DNA from: Escherichia coli
GTDB lineage: Bacteria; Pseudomonadota; Gammaproteobacteria; Enterobacterales; Enterobacteriaceae
Strand: one strand, 5' to 3'
NCBI RefSeq assembly: GCF_003334355.1
Contig: NZ_QOWP01000002.1
DNA length: 64,000 nt
Shown here: positions 1 to 32,806 of the stretch, piece by piece
Numbering within the stretch: position 1 is the first letter of the stretch
How the letters are laid out: each line of letters begins with the position of its first letter
Translations under genes and position numbers: made by a program
The notes under the pieces: model-generated
Databases searched by the model: none
What the model saw: only the letters and a program-made list of their open reading frames with translations
Told to the model about the DNA's origin: nothing

Positions 1-1
1 C

Positions 2-181
2 AAATCCAATGGCCGCTCTCTTAATTCAGAATTAGTTCATATAGTGACTGATGCTGTATCAAAGCCATCCAAAATTTCAGGCTATCGAGACGATGCGGAA
101 CGCATCGCTGATGAGCAGTCCGACCTTGTTAAGAAGATGGTGTTTGATACGCTGAAGGATTTGTACAAAAAAACCACCTGA
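2..181 (+). CDS. hypothetical protein, 3' fragment (ORF continues upstream of window)
   Basis: Open frame from window edge to TGA at 179-181 (…DAERIADEQSDLVKKMVFDTLKDLYKKTT*); no family recognised. Confidence 0.3.
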   Translation, partial: KSNGRSLNSELVHIVTDAVSKPSKISGYRDDAERIADEQSDLVKKMVFDTLKDLYKKTT

Positions 182-280
182 CGGTGAGTTAATTTTTGCA
201 TTTACCTGGGCCATATTGACTACTTATAAAATGAGATCAATATTTAATCGCCCAATAACGGGTGTATGTTGAGGTATATC

Positions 281-460
281 ATGGCGAAAAAACCAGGTGA
301 AAACACAGGGAAAAACGGCGGAATATACCAAGAAGTTGGCCCACGCGGCGGTAAGAAAGACAATTTTGCCACCGTCAAGGACAACGAAAGGCTTCCACCA
401 ACAACAAAGCCAGGTCATGGCTGGGTATTGGATAAGCGAACTCCAGACAGCAAAAAGTAA
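281..460 (+). CDS. small protein with YjzC-like signature (hypothetical)
   Basis: 59 aa from ATG 281 with GAGGT SD 6 nt upstream; pattern KPGE..G.Y.EVG..G…LPPT…G..W resembles YjzC-like small proteins; hairpin terminator follows. Confidence 0.45.
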   Translation: MAKKPGENTGKNGGIYQEVGPRGGKKDNFATVKDNERLPPTTKPGHGWVLDKRTPDSKK

Positions 461-466
461 TAATCA

Positions 467-489
467 AGCCGGGTCACTCCGGCTTTTTG
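467..489. terminator. hairpin AGCCGGGTCACTCCGGCT + T-run, between convergent genes
   Basis: GCCGG/CCGGC stem followed by TTTTT directly after stop at 460; overlaps stop of minus-strand gene. Confidence 0.4.
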
Positions 490-839
490 ATATGTCGCTC
501 GCAGAACTCAACAAGCCTGCTCATTAAGTAGCAGTAAGTCTCGTTGGCTCTTCCTGGTTCAACATCAACACCTACCCTTGAGCAGATATCGAATGCCATG
601 TGAGCGCACTCATGGGCAATAGTAGATAGTTTGCCATTGAACACGCCTATCACATGCAAAACACCATTCTCGCTACTCATTGTATGAGACGCTCCGTTGG
701 CGTCCGAGTCATGCACGTCAACGCCAAGTTTTTGATGCAGGCGTTGCCATTCTGGAAAGTCTCTACAAAACACAATTGTACCGCTCTCAAAGAGCGGAAC
801 GAGCATCTTTGGTACGTTTCCAATGTTAACTTTTTTCAT
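474..839 (-). CDS. HExxH-motif protein, putative small zinc metallopeptidase-like
   Basis: 121 aa ORF with protein-like composition and a single HECAH motif ([10 protein letters not shown]); weak SD (AGGA). Confidence 0.5.
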
Positions 840-869
840 GGTATCCTGCGTAAAACTAAGGAGGTTGGT

Positions 870-1364
870 GTGTCTGATTCTATGAGTTACGCTGTGCTAG
901 TTGCCGCAACTCTATTTCTGGGGATAGGGTTGCAGATTGCGTGGTTCTTTTTTTCTAGTTTTATTAAACGTAAAAGAATTGAATCAAGGATATCTGAGAT
1001 TTCTATTGCTATAGGGAAAAATGCTGAAAATCCAGAGAATGAGGCCTGCGCACTGAATTACCTTAAAGAAAAGTTTTCCCCTGAAAAATTTGAAAACAGA
1101 ATTACTGATGCTCTTGGATTGGTAATATCAGTAATTCATATGCCACTAAGTTTGCTGATAACAGTGTGGTACTTCGCCATGATCGCCGGAAGAATATTTG
1201 GTTTCATGAATATAGAGCCTGTAGTTCTTTGGGTTCCAATGATACTGCAATTGTTGTTAAGCGTTGCTATCTTTATTTTTTCTGTTTTTATAAAAATTGT
1301 CTTCGGAAGATACCCCGGAGAAGCGAAGGGATTTAATAAAGAATTCATAAAAACTATAAAATAA
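870..1364 (+). CDS. AT-rich 3-TM membrane protein (candidate superinfection-exclusion/cargo gene at sieA position)
   Basis: GTG 870 preceded by AAGGAGG (858-864); three hydrophobic helices; ~33% GC versus ~50% flanks; upstream in-frame extension to 654 looks non-coding. Confidence 0.5.
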
Positions 1365-1386
1365 ATGCCGTCCTTGGCTTACAGTG

Positions 1387-3261
1387 CTACTGCCGGGTAG
1401 CTTCGTTAACTAAGAGCGGGCGCACGGCAGTAGCCGCCTGATTTAGCGCTCTTTCATAAGCTGGCGTTCCAGCTTTAGTGTTTGCCAGACGTAAGAGCGC
1501 ATTCCTTGCTGCTTTGGATTCATACAAGCGCATCATTGCACCGAAACCAGCCTCAAGCCCCATTGATACGCCAAGAGTCGTAGTTGCGCCAATCGTCCTT
1601 ATCCTGTTGGCTTGCGATTGCCCCGTCTGAGTTACTACATTTGCGGTGTCTGATCTTGCTGTTTGCTGTAGAACTTCATGAAGAGCATCAAGTTCTTTCA
1701 TGTGCTTTCCAGAAAAAATAGCGTTGTAAATTTCACCGCCTGACTGAGATTTCAGCTTATTAACTTCCGTGATGAACTTGGCTGGAGAGTCACCGGCCTT
1801 TTCCGCTATTTTGCTGACGTAAGCTGCACGCATAGCATCTTTCCCTTTATCATCCAATGCGCTCCAGATTCGTTTCACGTCAGATGGTTTTCTGCTTAAT
1901 ACAACAGTATTTATAAGTTCAGGACTGGCTTCACTGCTTGCCTTGTTGAGCTTGTTAGCAATGTTTTTATTAAGCACCTTATTATAAACGTTTGCATAAT
2001 CGGAATTTGCTTTAAGGTATTTTGCTGCGTCTGAAGCACCGAGGTTTTTAGCAACTGCGTTACGAAGGTCTTTTGACATTGCATTCTCTACCATATTGGT
2101 AGCTGCTTTTGCCTGGTTGGGGAAGACCATGGCATCTCCCTGAACATTAGATCTAAATGCTGTTCTGTGCTGGCGCAAGAGATCAAACGTAACATCCAAA
2201 TCAGTTGCAGGGTTTGCTAATTCTTCACGTAGGTTACGCAAGGATGTAAGCAGGCTTTGATTGGCAGAAGTCCCAAGCCGTTCCTGTCTTGCGATCGCTG
2301 TATTCAGAGCATTCATGGTATTTGTGGTATCAACTGCGGCATTACCCATTTTATTGGTGACGTCATTGATAACAGCGCCAGCGGCATCCTTCCGTCCCCT
2401 TAACGTGGTGGTCAGAGATTTCACCACATCATCAGGGTTGTACTCACCAAAACGGTCAAAATAATTGCTTACCAGCTTACTACGCGTTGCATATTGCTCC
2501 GCTCGCTTTGAGCCTGTCCCGAGCAAAGCCCCCTCAGCATCCTGAGTAAGTCCGCGAGTGAAAGCATTTTTCGGCGGGATAACATCAGATGTCATTGGTG
2601 TCACGCCCATCGATTCTGATGTGGCAATTTTCTTTGCCACTTCTGGCGCAATATCACCTTTTATAGCCGTTATTCCACGCCCTATTCCCTTTGCTGCTGC
2701 GGAAAGAACCCCCTGAGCGGCAAGGTTAACTCCGGCATTTTTAGTTGCATTTTGTGCGAAATCGCCTTTCTGATTTGCGGCCTCTGCCAGTGATCCAATA
2801 GCCATGCTTCCTGCCGTTCCAACTCCTGGAACTAAATACCCGCCAATTGTTTCACCAGCTTGAGCGTAGGGGTCTGTCGGTCGATCGACTGGACGATAAA
2901 CATCATCCAAAACCTTGGGGCCACCAAGCCCCTGGCTGATTGCATTAATCAGGCTTGCGCCGCCCTGTAATACGTCGAATGGTATGTTTACCAGACCACG
3001 ACCAGCCTGCTCTGCAATTTGCCCTGCACTTTGACCACCTGTGAGCCAATCACCAGCTTGTTGCATCAATGATGGTTCTTCTTTCTGCTGCTGAGGCGGA
3101 GGGTATGCTGCATAAAACTGATCTCTTGCTTCAGCCCATTTGTCACCAGCCTTAGGGGCAACAACCTCATCAAAATATTGCGCTTGAGCCTGTGCTTTCT
3201 GTTCTTCAGTTAACGCCTGATACTGTGGAGAGGCGATAACATCTTTCCATGCTTTAGCCAT
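1387..3261 (-). CDS. ejection/internal virion protein, P22 gp16-like
   Basis: 624 aa, Ala/Gly/Gln-rich, last gene of late operon; size and position match P22 gp16 (609 aa). Confidence 0.7.
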
Positions 3262-31738: not shown

Positions 31739-31929
31739 GATCGGTTTTGTAAAAGATAACGCTTGTGAAAATGCTGAATTTCGCGTCGTCTTCACAGCGA
31801 TGCCAGAGTCTGTAGTGTCAGATGATGACCGTACTCAAACATCGGGTTGAGTATTATCTTACTGTTTCTTTACATAAACATTGCTGATACCGTTTAGCTG
31901 AAACGACATACATTGCAAGGAGTTTATAA

Positions 31930-32211
31930 ATGAGTATCAATGAGTTAGAGTCTGAGCAAAAAGATTGGGCGTTATCAATGTTGTGCAGATCCGGTGTCTT
32001 GTCTCCATGCAGACATCACGAAGGTGTTTATGTAGATGAAGGTATAGATATAGAGTCGGCATACAAATATTCCATGAAGGTTTATAAGTCTAATGAAGAC
32101 AAATCCCCATTCTGCAATGTGCGAGAAATGACTGATACCGTGCAAAATTATTATCACGAGTACGGTGGAAACGATACTTGCCCTCTCTGTACAAAACATA
32201 TAGATGATTAA
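31930..32211 (+). CDS. hypothetical Cys-rich protein, AT-rich cargo gene
   Basis: 93 aa with C-x5-C … C-P-L-C; low GC. Confidence 0.4.
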   Translation: MSINELESEQKDWALSMLCRSGVLSPCRHHEGVYVDEGIDIESAYKYSMKVYKSNEDKSPFCNVREMTDTVQNYYHEYGGNDTCPLCTKHIDD

Positions 32212-32262
32212 ACCCAATATTACATAACAATCCTCGCACTCGCGGGGATTTATTTTATCTGA

Positions 32263-32286
32263 ACTCGCTACGGCGAGTTTTGTTTT
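32263..32286 (+). terminator. rho-independent terminator (ACTCGC-TACG-GCGAGT + T-run), second hairpin at 32229-32257
   Basis: Perfect 6-bp stem and TTTTGTTTT. Confidence 0.5.
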
Positions 32287-32299
32287 ATGGAGATGATAA

Positions 32300-32467
32300 A
32301 TGCACTTCCGAGTCACAGGTGAATGGAATGGAGAACCATTCAACAGAGTTATCGAAGCCGAGGACATCAACGACTGCTATAACCACTGGATGATATGGGC
32401 GCAGATAGCACATGCAGACGTAACCAATATTCGAATTGAAGAACTGAAAGAACACCAAGCCGCCTGA
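32300..32467 (+). CDS. small hypothetical protein (55 aa) insulated by terminators
   Basis: ATG 32300 with GGAG SD; MHFRVTGEWNGEPFNRVIEAEDINDCYNHWMIWAQIAHADVTNIRIEELKEHQAA. Confidence 0.4.
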   Translation: MHFRVTGEWNGEPFNRVIEAEDINDCYNHWMIWAQIAHADVTNIRIEELKEHQAA

Positions 32468-32480
32468 TGGCGGTTTTTTT
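32460..32480 (+). terminator. rho-independent terminator (CCGCC-TGAT-GGCGG + T7)
   Basis: Read directly, overlaps stop of small ORF. Confidence 0.5.
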
Positions 32481-32525
32481 ATTGCCTGATTTGCAGGTTC
32501 GATTCCCTATTCGGAGATAGCACTC

Positions 32526-32726
32526 ATGCAACACGAACTACAGCCTGATTCACTGGTTGATTTGAAATTCATCATGGCCGATACTGGCTTCGGTAAAACC
32601 TTCATCTACGACCGAATTAAGTCCGGCGACCTGCCAAAAGCCAAAGTTATCCACGGTCGAGCAAGATGGTTATATCGTGACCATTGTGAATTCAAAAATA
32701 AGCTCTTAAGCCGCGCCAATGGGTAA
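32526..32726 (+). CDS. torI: TorI, prophage excisionase / TorR inhibitor
   Basis: 66 aa MQHELQPDSLVDLKFIMADTGFGKTFIYDRIKSGDLPKAKVIHGRARWLYRDHCEFKNKLLSRANG, as recalled for K-12 TorI. Confidence 0.9.
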   Translation: MQHELQPDSLVDLKFIMADTGFGKTFIYDRIKSGDLPKAKVIHGRARWLYRDHCEFKNKLLSRANG

Positions 32727-32791
32727 AATAGCGGGTAAAATATTTCTCACATCTAAAAAACACCATTCCAATCAATCCCCTGCCGCTTCAA

Positions 32792-32806
32792 GTAGATGTC
32801 TGCAGG
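32792..32806. other. attR core (CTGCAGGGGACACCA, tRNA 3'-end-like; consistent with argW)
   Basis: Ends in ACCA after acceptor-stem-like GGGGAC; lies between torI and dsdC where phage genes give way to backbone. Confidence 0.55.

Follow-up and report, generated by a model that had tools for sequence, protein, structure and literature searches.

The window analysed here, a stretch of 64,000 nucleotides from the Escherichia coli contig NZ_QOWP01000002.1, opens within a prophage of 37.45 kb, a temperate P22-like podovirus lying in the argW tRNA gene's 3' end. Judged from its sequence, this prophage is probably viable (we put the probability at roughly 0.8), and it is not an undecayed form of KplE1 (CPS-53), the element that E. 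coli K-12 carries at this locus. On gene content and homology, window positions 1-32815 constitute the right-hand 32.8 kb of the P22-like (Lederbergvirus) prophage.

The earlier note had described such a prophage at the argW/dsdC locus, with late operon, lysis, replication and immunity genes and with torI and attR at its end beside dsdC. Gene order and flank agree with that placement, ORFs, homologues and Pfam hits locate each gene set where it was said to be, and the 16-nt attR core (32800-32815) is followed next by dsdC (32910-33851). The right end proposed there, 32806, lies inside the core, which runs to 32815. The portion within the window also looks intact, as had been supposed. Its genes are uninterrupted, and the virion, lysis, late-regulation, replication and immunity genes align end to end with homologues of comparable length from isolated phages or complete prophages, including the plaque-forming relatives CUS-3, Kapi1, HK620 and JEP4; no IS elements, frameshifts or internal stops were found in essential genes within the window. 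Since megablast gave 95-97% identity over approximately 15-20 kb to CUS-3, Kapi1 and related prophages, the P22-like pattern is not due to chance. Pfam hits on the identical stretch of a public contig give the same picture (P22_portal, P22_CoatProtein, P22_Tail-4, Phage_stabilise, P22_gp7, Inj_translocase, Phage_P22_gp16, SIEA, DnaB, Phage_rep_O, Peptidase_S24, ERF and others).

Virion, lysis and replication genes

The virion and packaging genes occupy 1387-15453 on the minus strand in the P22 order gp16, gp20, gp7, gp14, gp26, gp10, gp4, coat, scaffold, portal, TerL and TerS, while the plus strand carries cI and then the early-left operon with torI as its last gene. The ejection proteins gp16 (1387-3261, PF26808) and gp20 (3261-4655, PF16928) align over their full length with those of JEP4, and gp7 (4668-5330, PF25688) aligns over most of its length with that of Kapi1, to which gp14 (5317-5784) is 96% identical. 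The tail needle gp26 (5784-6491) is 68% identical to that of HK620 over its full length (235 versus 234 amino acids). Between gp26 and gp10 lies a NUMOD4/HNH endonuclease gene (6478-7023, minus strand; phrog_59, E = 3e-58; PF07463 and PF13392), which is missing in the five phages compared (CUS-3, HK620, Kapi1, Sf6 and JEP4) and has a 100% identical copy in the SCU-124 prophage. The block at 7045-11310, comprising gp10, gp4, a small ORF, coat gp5 (9145-10398) and scaffold gp8 (10417-11310), has full-length counterparts of 92-100% identity in CUS-3 and Kapi1; portal (11401-13599) and large terminase (13601-15016) reach 99-100%, likewise over full length, and the small terminase TerS (15013-15453) is 99% identical to that of CUS-3. 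Outside this series are an hkcC homologue of 121 amino acids (474-839, minus strand), 99% identical to HK620 hkcC; a SieA-like superinfection-exclusion membrane protein gene, a moron, on the plus strand (870-1364; phrog_7745, E = 3e-106; PF26849 SIEA); and, on the minus strand, the DUF2560 gene hkbM (15456-15698), 100% identical to HK620, CUS-3 and Sf6, and a KilA-N family gene (15955-16485; phrog_129, E = 1e-60).

The lysis cassette, also on the minus strand, consists of Rz (16831-17298) with Rz1 embedded in it (16872-17078), endolysin R (17295-17771) and holin S (17755-18078), and matches HK620 and Kapi1 over full length at 92-100% identity. The late antiterminator Q (18754-19377, minus strand) is 99% identical over full length to the Q proteins of those two phages. 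The late promoter pR', with the start of the qut region, was placed at 18676-18711 (minus strand) by homology to HK620, whose annotated pR' (15560-15595) falls in an ungapped 96% alignment of window 19400-18654 with HK620 14871-15617. The nin region (19374-23131, minus strand) includes ninH, rusA, DUF1364, roi, ninF, ninE, ninB and a 70-amino acid ORF, with an ORF resembling a Rha N terminus and a restriction endonuclease between roi and ninF (20965-21432) and an MT-A70 methyltransferase gene between ninE and ninB (21911-22501). Replication genes on the same strand encode a DnaB-type helicase (23213-24589), 99% identical to those of CUS-3 and Kapi1, and the O initiator (24586-25416; TIGR01610, PF04492), inside which are four ori iterons (24983-25077) spaced 20-24 nt apart.

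Overall, the virion, packaging, lysis and helicase proteins of CUS-3 and Kapi1, both Lederbergvirus members that integrate at argW, are 94-100% identical to those of the prophage and encoded in the same order. Kapi1 also has the same att core, with xis/torI and int at opposite prophage ends. The two phages differ from the prophage in immunity, which here is of the HK022 type and comes without an N gene, in the gp16, gp20 and gp26 alleles, in the tailspike and in early-left accessory genes, and they lack its extra HNH genes. With HK620 the prophage shares Q, holin, endolysin, Rz/Rz1 and hkcC (92-100% identity), whereas coat, scaffold and portal of HK620 and Sf6 belong to a different sequence type, with 33-56% identity to the prophage or no match.

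Immunity region and early antitermination

For immunity with put RNA antitermination the closest known phage is HK022, along with HK75 and O276. Over the 1,386 bp of window 25832-27217, which take in cI, cro, oL, oR, pL, pR, pE, putL and putR, the identity to HK022 is 99.6%. HK022 itself is a long-tailed siphovirus (Hendrixvirinae) with a different integration module. Cro (26015-26245, minus strand) is 100% identical to HK022 Cro. The operators oR1-3 with pR and pRM (26261-26332), mapped from the X16093 annotation by ungapped alignment, show no base differing from HK022 (pR = TTGACT-16-CATAAT), and oL with pL (27093-27135, plus strand; TTTACA-17-CATCAT) is also identical. The HK022-type repressor gene cI (26325-27032, plus strand) encodes a helix-turn-helix and an S24 autopeptidase domain (PF01381 and PF00717); 231 of its 235 residues match HK022 CI, both the GDSM serine and the lysine downstream of it are kept, and the four substitutions relative to the 1989 HK022 record are D78Y, Y92S, T125P and C168Y. 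The cII gene (25597-25893, minus strand; PF05269) is 89-92% identical over full length to those of Kapi1 and EC102.

The antiterminator RNA site putR (25933-25994, minus strand), which folds as two stem-loops and, as in HK75, separates cro from cII, matches HK022 at 62 of 62 positions; putL (27151-27213, plus strand) matches HK022 and HK75 at 63 of 63. Homology to HK022 stops at 27217, 4 nt past putL, and the HK022 nun gene is replaced by an HNH endonuclease gene, a remnant of N and small ORFs of unrelated sequence. The HNH gene (27275-27808, plus strand; phrog_99, E = 5e-66) stands in place of nun or the 5' half of N, and its product is 97% identical to the HNH protein of the Salmonella phage UPF_BP1, which has the same putL junction. 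The remnant (27804-27938, plus strand) is a decayed 3' part of a P22-gp24/N-type antiterminator gene that aligns to codons 44-87 of mEpX2 N, without the arginine-rich N terminus and with an internal stop in translation. Neither nun nor kil is present in the early-left region.

With N reduced to a remnant and neither kil nor nun present, viability hinges on the put sites working in this prophage. HK620 and Sf6 use an N protein with nut sites. In a rival reading the phage was N-dependent and is now crippled: the HNH insertion would have destroyed N, leaving the put sites as insufficient passengers of an immunity swap. The remnant is indeed the sole leftover of an N/gp24-type gene, and no other N-like ORF was found among the window ORFs. 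However, putL and putR are base for base those of HK022 at their native distances from identical pL and pR promoters, and HK022 put RNAs alone suffice for antitermination, acting over more than 10 kb (PMC9378689). UPF_BP1, a plaque-forming P22-like Lederbergvirus with another repressor and cro and a Salmonella host, has 62 of 62 putR and 60 of 63 putL positions and the same HNH gene after putL (98% identity over window 27139-27861), followed by a short gp24-like ORF annotated as a 58-amino acid gp24 fragment. We therefore regard such a defect as very improbable. Early antitermination in this prophage should rest on put RNA rather than N, and for that reason the missing N would be no defect.

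Early-left operon, attachment sites and left end

Downstream on the plus strand, 27942-29320 contains small early-left genes (phrog_5305, 1273 and 2201), two HK97 gp42-like ORFs, two intrinsic terminators (28814-28871) and cIII (28904-29074). The recombination genes erf (29331-29936), an SSB-like gene (29936-30319) and the anti-RecBCD gene abc2 (30343-30639) are 92-100% identical to CUS-3 as a set (29331-30639; PF04404, PF11043; phrog_44). The ea region (30650-32467) holds accessory genes, among them Ead/Ea22 (31055-31738), an ea8.5-like gene (31930-32211), DUF2737, DUF7446 and a 55-amino acid ORF, and intrinsic terminators at 32229-32280 and 32457-32476 precede torI.

The gene torI (32526-32726, plus strand) encodes a recombination directionality factor (excisionase) identical at 66 of 66 residues to K-12 TorI, HK620 HkaC, Sf6 gp18 and the Kapi1 excisionase. 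It is followed by attR (32727-32815, plus strand), made up of a P arm, in which two GGGTAAAAT motifs overlap the torI stop, and of the core CTGCAGGGGACACCAT, taken as defined for KplE1 (PMC2951348); the attP core of HK620 and Sf6 is identical. A 16-nt copy of the argW T-arm, TTGCAGGTTCGATTCC, lies 19 nt upstream of torI (32491-32506, plus strand), as it does upstream of torI in HK620 and Sf6. This spot is annotated as a pI/cII site in HK620 and as 'att core' in the CUS-3 record, which ends at the 16-mer and therefore lacks torI.

The left 4.6 kb of the prophage lies outside the window and was read from the draft contig DABAWU010000002.1; over window positions 1-13261 and 21055-41738 (approximately 34 kb compared) this contig shows 0 mismatches. 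On this proxy the left part, whose integrase and tailspike the earlier note had marked for checking, is intact: mnt, tailspike, acyltransferase and intS are all undamaged and attL lies in argW. The tailspike has 645 amino acids with Head_binding and Beta_helix domains, and IntS is identical to K-12 IntS at 381 of 385 residues. The window edge clips an Arc/Mnt-family repressor gene (83 amino acids) whose 3' part is at 1-181 (plus strand); it maps to 13081-13332 (PF03869 Arc, PF11423 Repressor_Mnt) of contig L010, which is identical to the window over 1-13261. Window and proxy left end together give a reconstructed prophage of 37,451 bp.

Relationship to KplE1

It had been proposed that the prophage is the intact counterpart of the KplE1 ancestor, so that aligning the two would retrace how KplE1 decayed. 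The argW-to-dsdC locus and the 16-nt core are the same in both, TorI is 100% and IntS (by proxy) about 99% identical, and the identity between window and K-12, starting at 32473, is 99.6-99.7% with a collinear flank (99.7% across torI and attR). Everything between intS and torI differs. When 17 KplE1 proteins were searched against the window by tblastn with E values up to 10, TorI was the sole match, and DNA homology to KplE1 begins only at 32473, 53 bp upstream of torI. The suggested links through a yfdM-like methyltransferase and yfdO-like replication genes likewise fell away, the MT-A70 enzyme having no similarity to YfdM and O/P none to YfdO. KplE1, which has neither repressor nor virion genes (PMC2951348), carries its own gtr genes, genes for tail-fibre assembly and an early region of the SfII/SfV type, and its body from yfdM to ypdJ shares 97-98% identity with phages of the SfII/SfV/SfIV/PhiR29 type; it therefore descends, as a remnant, from a different phage with the same IntS/TorI module. 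The literature also treats this recombination module as common to otherwise different (pro)phages (PMC2951348, PMC3509656). Common descent of the two bodies is contradicted by this evidence and extremely improbable: by sequence, prophage and KplE1 have in common only the integration/excision module, torI-attR and IntS-attL, and without homology between the bodies the prophage is no template for KplE1 decay.

Proposed life cycle and viability

The elements of the following cycle are present in the sequence, and their functions are taken from the named homologues. In the lysogen, HK022-type CI would keep pL and pR shut, and SieA and the O-antigen acyltransferase encoded outside the window are the likely conversion and exclusion functions. 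DNA damage would lead to RecA-stimulated self-cleavage of CI through its S24 domain and open both promoters. The nascent putL and putR RNAs would then bind the zinc-binding domain of the RNA polymerase beta' subunit and, with no N protein, make the polymerase terminator-resistant, so that the leftward transcript could pass at least five intrinsic terminators, beyond erf, ssb and abc2, and reach torI. TorI, together with IntS made from its own promoter at the opposite prophage end, would recombine attL with attR at the core. The rightward transcript would supply O, with the ori iterons inside its gene, the DnaB-type helicase and Q, which would load at pR' and drive the lysis genes as well as the headful packaging and virion genes in P22 order.

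The sequence is compatible with inducibility. Kapi1 covers 62% of window 1-25000 at 96.8% identity and is integrated at argW, where it uses the same att site; mitomycin C induces it, and this induction depends on recA (PMC8787464). Eight viral contigs of IMG/VR, of which seven measure 22-42 kb, contain the canonical attP junction. In three other assemblies with the same or a closely related prophage, contigs end at the att cores or no more than about 5 nt from them, one such contig being 37,409 bp, equal to the core-to-core distance; such ends would result where the assembly graph forks between the integrated and the excised form. These contig boundaries are indirect evidence, and against them stands sample SRR3823860, in which the attR junction was assembled straight through.

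Intact ORFs are no proof of function, and the prophage could be cryptic, with infectious particles blocked by a lesion, missense or regulatory (for example one that affects CI cleavage, O/ori, the portal or the tailspike), or by a damaged true left end, while it persists as a domesticated element giving SieA and O-antigen modification. CI carries its four substitutions relative to HK022, the left end was seen by proxy only, and related prophages at the argW locus are often degraded, as in EC102 (an IS3 insertion and a truncated portal) and the K-12 KplE1 remnant. Against this, the 37.45 kb contain no frameshift, stop or IS element, close relatives are inducible and sister assemblies break at the att cores; zero mismatches separate independent isolates across more than 34 kb, a sign of recent spread and not of long residence. 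We consider a cryptic state unlikely and a viable prophage probable.

In its composition the prophage is a mosaic typical of lambdoid phages, built from three parts: a virion and packaging module of the CUS-3/Kapi1 type, an immunity region of the HK022 type, and the IntS/TorI recombination module common to HK620, Sf6, Kapi1 and the K-12 KplE1 remnant. (Pro)phages of the P22 type that carry this module at argW have been described before (Panis 2010; Kapi1 2022), and the prophage adds an ordinary member to them.

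A P22-like prophage beside dsdC

Genes were assigned from an ORF listing, by megablast against phage and E. coli collections, and by gene-by-gene BLASTP against CUS-3, HK620, Kapi1, Sf6, JEP4 and two E. coli prophages. By these comparisons, a P22-like prophage (genus Lederbergvirus) fills positions 1-32815 of the window with its right-hand part. The earlier note had described a P22-like prophage ending in torI and attR beside dsdC, and the ORFs, megablast and BLASTP all bear this out, although the end given there, 32806, falls inside the att core at 32800-32815.

The virion block has the syntenic order 3-2-1-8-5-4-10-26-14-7-20-16, and its portal, coat, gp4, gp10 and ejection proteins are of the P22 type. 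It lies on the minus strand at 1387-15453 as gp16, gp20, gp7, gp14, gp26, gp10, gp4, coat, scaffold, portal, TerL and TerS, in P22 order. The same strand carries the lysis cassette Rz/Rz1/R/S (16831-18078), Q (18754-19377), the nin region (19374-23131), the replication genes for the DnaB-type helicase and O initiator (23213-25416; four ori iterons lie at 24983-25077) and, beyond O in gene order, cII and cro. On the plus strand are cI and the early-left operon (erf, an ssb-like gene, abc2 and ea genes), the last gene of which is torI (32526-32726). Pfam hits on an identical public sequence (P22_portal, P22_CoatProtein, P22_Tail-4, Phage_stabilise, P22_gp7, Inj_translocase and Phage_P22_gp16) agree with these assignments; NCBIfam was uninformative on gp16, gp20 and the methyltransferase, and a tRNA scan of the window found none.

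BLASTP identities of the virion block to CUS-3 and Kapi1 were 92-100%, and Q and the pR' promoter match HK620. The small terminase is 99% identical to that of CUS-3, from which we infer a short-tailed virion and headful packaging. Each essential gene has, in an isolated phage or a complete prophage, a homologue of comparable length with which it aligns end to end, and no IS element, frameshift or internal stop was found in the essential genes. Among 5,426 complete E. coli genomes, none reaches 80% coverage of window positions 25001-36000; for positions 1-25000 there is a single such record, BEN2908, with 81% coverage at 96% identity.

Three genes in the prophage resemble selfish endonucleases. 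The first, a NUMOD4/HNH homing-endonuclease-like gene (6478-7023), separates gp10 from the tail needle gp26; CUS-3, HK620, Kapi1, Sf6 and JEP4 lack it, and the SCU-124 prophage has a 100% identical copy. The second is the HNH gene of the immunity region, described below. A 155 amino acid ORF beside roi (20965-21432) may be the third: its first 64 residues are 65% identical to the Roi/Rha N terminus, while the C-terminal 65 residues gave only weak restriction-endonuclease-like matches (MTES_1575, DUF559, E value about 0.006).

The left end

The left 4.6 kb of the prophage, beyond the window edge, was recovered through exact-protein look-ups and is known from a proxy, contig DABAWU010000002.1 of GCA_012531255.1, not from the window's own sequence. 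Over the 34 kb of overlap examined, this contig has zero mismatches to window positions 1-13261 and 21055-41738. Leftward it continues with the rest of an Arc/Mnt-family gene, the tailspike, an acyltransferase, IntS and an attL core within argW. The tailspike, which lies about 200 bp beyond the left edge of the window, is 645 amino acids long with a P22-type Head_binding domain (PF09008) and a Beta_helix; IntS (385 amino acids) matches K-12 IntS at 381 of 385 residues, and the attL arm sequence is conserved. Thus the integrase and tailspike, which the earlier note had wished to see checked outside the window, are intact in the proxy contig. Window and proxy left end together give a reconstructed prophage of 37,451 bp from core to core.

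Attachment site and the split argW sequence

The 16-nt att core CTGCAGGGGACACCAT, which derives from the 3' end of argW (as defined in PMC2951348), is found at 32800-32815, where it forms the prophage-chromosome junction, attR; dsdC follows. The last gene before it encodes a TorI-type recombination directionality factor identical to K-12 TorI at 66 of 66 residues, and excision dependent on TorI and IntS has been demonstrated on KplE1 and HK620 substrates (PMC2951348). Window positions 32473-63471 run collinear with K-12 and are 99.6-99.7% identical to it. This collinearity breaks exactly at 63472, the start of an IS3 left end with orfA (63472-64000) inserted in fryC, a putative PTS EIIC gene, and the proxy contig ends at about the same point; the window would therefore belong to a different assembly, made from the same strain or a sister strain.

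torI divides the 3'-terminal 30 nt of argW into two pieces: a T-arm 16-mer, TTGCAGGTTCGATTCC, lies at 32491-32506, 19 nt before the start of torI, and the true core lies 293 bp away from it, 73 nt downstream of torI. The same split is common to all phages with this module and was observed in HK620, Sf6, Kapi1, K-12 and EC102; the chance expectation for an exact 16-mer at that place is ~2e-7. One account is that torI and the P arm were captured inside an older, longer block of argW identity in attP, the upstream 16-mer being retained thereafter because it now serves either as pI, the promoter that depends on cII, or as a secondary site; we regard this as a doubtful, speculative explanation.

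In the CUS-3 record (CP000711.1) the T-arm 16-mer is annotated as the attL/attR core, at 1-16 and 40192-40207, and the record therefore ends before torI. This annotation implies excision at the 16-mer. The canonical attP junction, AGTAGATGT-core-TTATCAG, has eight matches in IMG/VR, versus none for the junction predicted from a crossover at the T-arm 16-mer, and the free-phage genomes HK620, Sf6 and Kapi1 all keep torI. We therefore rejected the 16-mer as the normal crossover site; on the right, the CUS-3 record probably lacks some 310 bp.

HK022-type immunity and put sites

Window positions 25832-27217 are 99.6% identical, ungapped, to the immunity region of phage HK022. Cro, oL, oR, pL and pR are identical to those of HK022, and CI differs at four residues but keeps the S24 catalytic motifs. 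Using homology to HK022 and HK75, we located putL at 27151-27213 (63 of 63 positions identical to HK022), just downstream of pL, and putR at 25933-25994 (62 of 62), downstream of cro. Each folds into two stems, and their distances from the identical promoters are the same as in HK022. A search of the window with Rfam at gathering thresholds gave no match, put RNA included.

In HK022, nascent put RNAs alone make RNA polymerase terminator-resistant over more than 10 kb via the beta' zinc-binding domain, and Nun is dispensable for put function (PMC9378689). The Nun exclusion protein downstream of putL is absent here and has been replaced: HK022 homology stops at 27217, 4 nt past putL, and resumes at 28730. 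In place of nun stand an HNH endonuclease gene (27275-27808), three small ORFs and, abutting the HNH gene, what is left of the 3' part of a P22-gp24/N-type gene, decayed and interrupted by a stop codon (27804-27938). Apart from this remnant, no N-type antiterminator was matched among the ORFs. The putL-HNH junction (the region of 27218-27938) recurs in UPF_BP1, an isolated P22-like Salmonella phage, and so the design is viable. putL itself was present in 19 of 50,697 phage isolate records, representing about a dozen phages, and is thus rare but not unique to this prophage. Farther along, at 28898-29074, the cIII-kil segment of HK022 is replaced by a 56 amino acid cIII variant (phrog_550), and kil is absent.

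At least five hairpins resembling intrinsic terminators stand in the path of the pL transcript before torI, the last immediately upstream of it. This arrangement suggests that synthesis of TorI, and hence excision, would be gated by put-modified transcription after CI cleavage. A separate, weaker reading is that such E. coli P22-like phages may be natural cases in which put RNA fully replaces N; a literature search turned up no paper that explicitly describes put sites in P22-like phages.

Relationship to KplE1

K-12 carries the remnant CPS-53/KplE1 at the same locus, and the earlier note had offered the present prophage as a reference for reconstructing how KplE1 decayed. Comparison of the two shows that what they have in common is limited to the torI-attR segment (from 32473) and, as read from the proxy contig, intS-attL. 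When the KplE1 proteins from YfdG to YfdT were searched against the window by tblastn at E values up to 10, nothing but TorI was matched, and the methyltransferase of the window is an MT-A70 enzyme unrelated to YfdM. The KplE1 body from yfdM to ypdJ (8113-12257 of L002, the K-12 sequence) is instead 97-98% identical to phages of the SfII, SfV, SfIV, PhiR29 and vB_EcoM-720R4 type; gtr genes and genes for tail-fibre assembly are present in KplE1 as well. Since its body matches SfII/SfV-type phages and has no match in the window, KplE1 is, by sequence, the remnant of a different phage with the same recombination module, descended from an SfII/SfV-type phage and not from a P22-like podovirus.

The idea that the window holds the undecayed progenitor of KplE1 was rejected on these grounds, and the proposed use in reconstructing its decay is unsupported; the locus, the phage type and the apparent integrity stood, while kinship with the KplE1 body did not. 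Conservation of the recombination module among otherwise different (pro)phages has been described for CUS-3, HK620, Sf6, APEC O1 and UTI89 (PMC2951348, PMC3509656). A shared attachment site and recombination module do not amount to shared ancestry of the prophage body.

Possible signs of activity

No base differs between independent isolates over the sequence compared, a sign of recent spread. Mitomycin C induces Kapi1, which is closely related and sits at the same site, and this induction depends on recA (PMC8787464). Seven of the eight IMG/VR viral contigs with the canonical attP junction are 22-42 kb long; the phage of the window is not among the eight. In three other assemblies, contigs with this prophage or a close relative of it break off at the att cores or no more than ~5 nt away from them. 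In GCA_014464935.1, a 37,409-bp contig ends 5 nt before the attR core, its length being the inter-core distance, and in GCA_002190165.1 a contig has the first base of the core as its own first base; in the SRR3823860 sample the assembly runs unbroken across the attR junction. The contig ends at the cores are an indirect hint that the sequenced cultures held both integrated and excised forms, which would make the assembly graph fork there. We had also considered the 39-kb circular 'plasmid' pEM03-18-08_2 (NZ_CP063485.1) as an excised copy and dropped it, as its integrase and xis differ and it is another P22-like phage, of which the same strain also has a chromosomal copy.

Intact frames could also belong to a cryptic prophage. 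The complete-looking sequence, the identical isolates, the inducibility of Kapi1 and the attP junction in IMG/VR contigs favour activity; we consider crypticity unlikely. On this evidence the element would be a complete P22-like prophage with HK022 immunity at argW, probably viable (a probability of roughly 0.8), and the explanations other than crypticity, even taken together, are highly improbable.

The module has been documented before in P22-like (pro)phages, namely those of CUS-3, HK620, Sf6, Kapi1, APEC O1 and UTI89, so that the prophage is an ordinary object, correctly observed, and opens no new question. Its practical value is modest and lies in being a clean, apparently complete argW-integrating P22-like phage with HK022 immunity, which could be used to study how put-RNA antitermination works in a podovirus and how TorI/IntS excision proceeds under natural CI control, a feature missing from KplE1.
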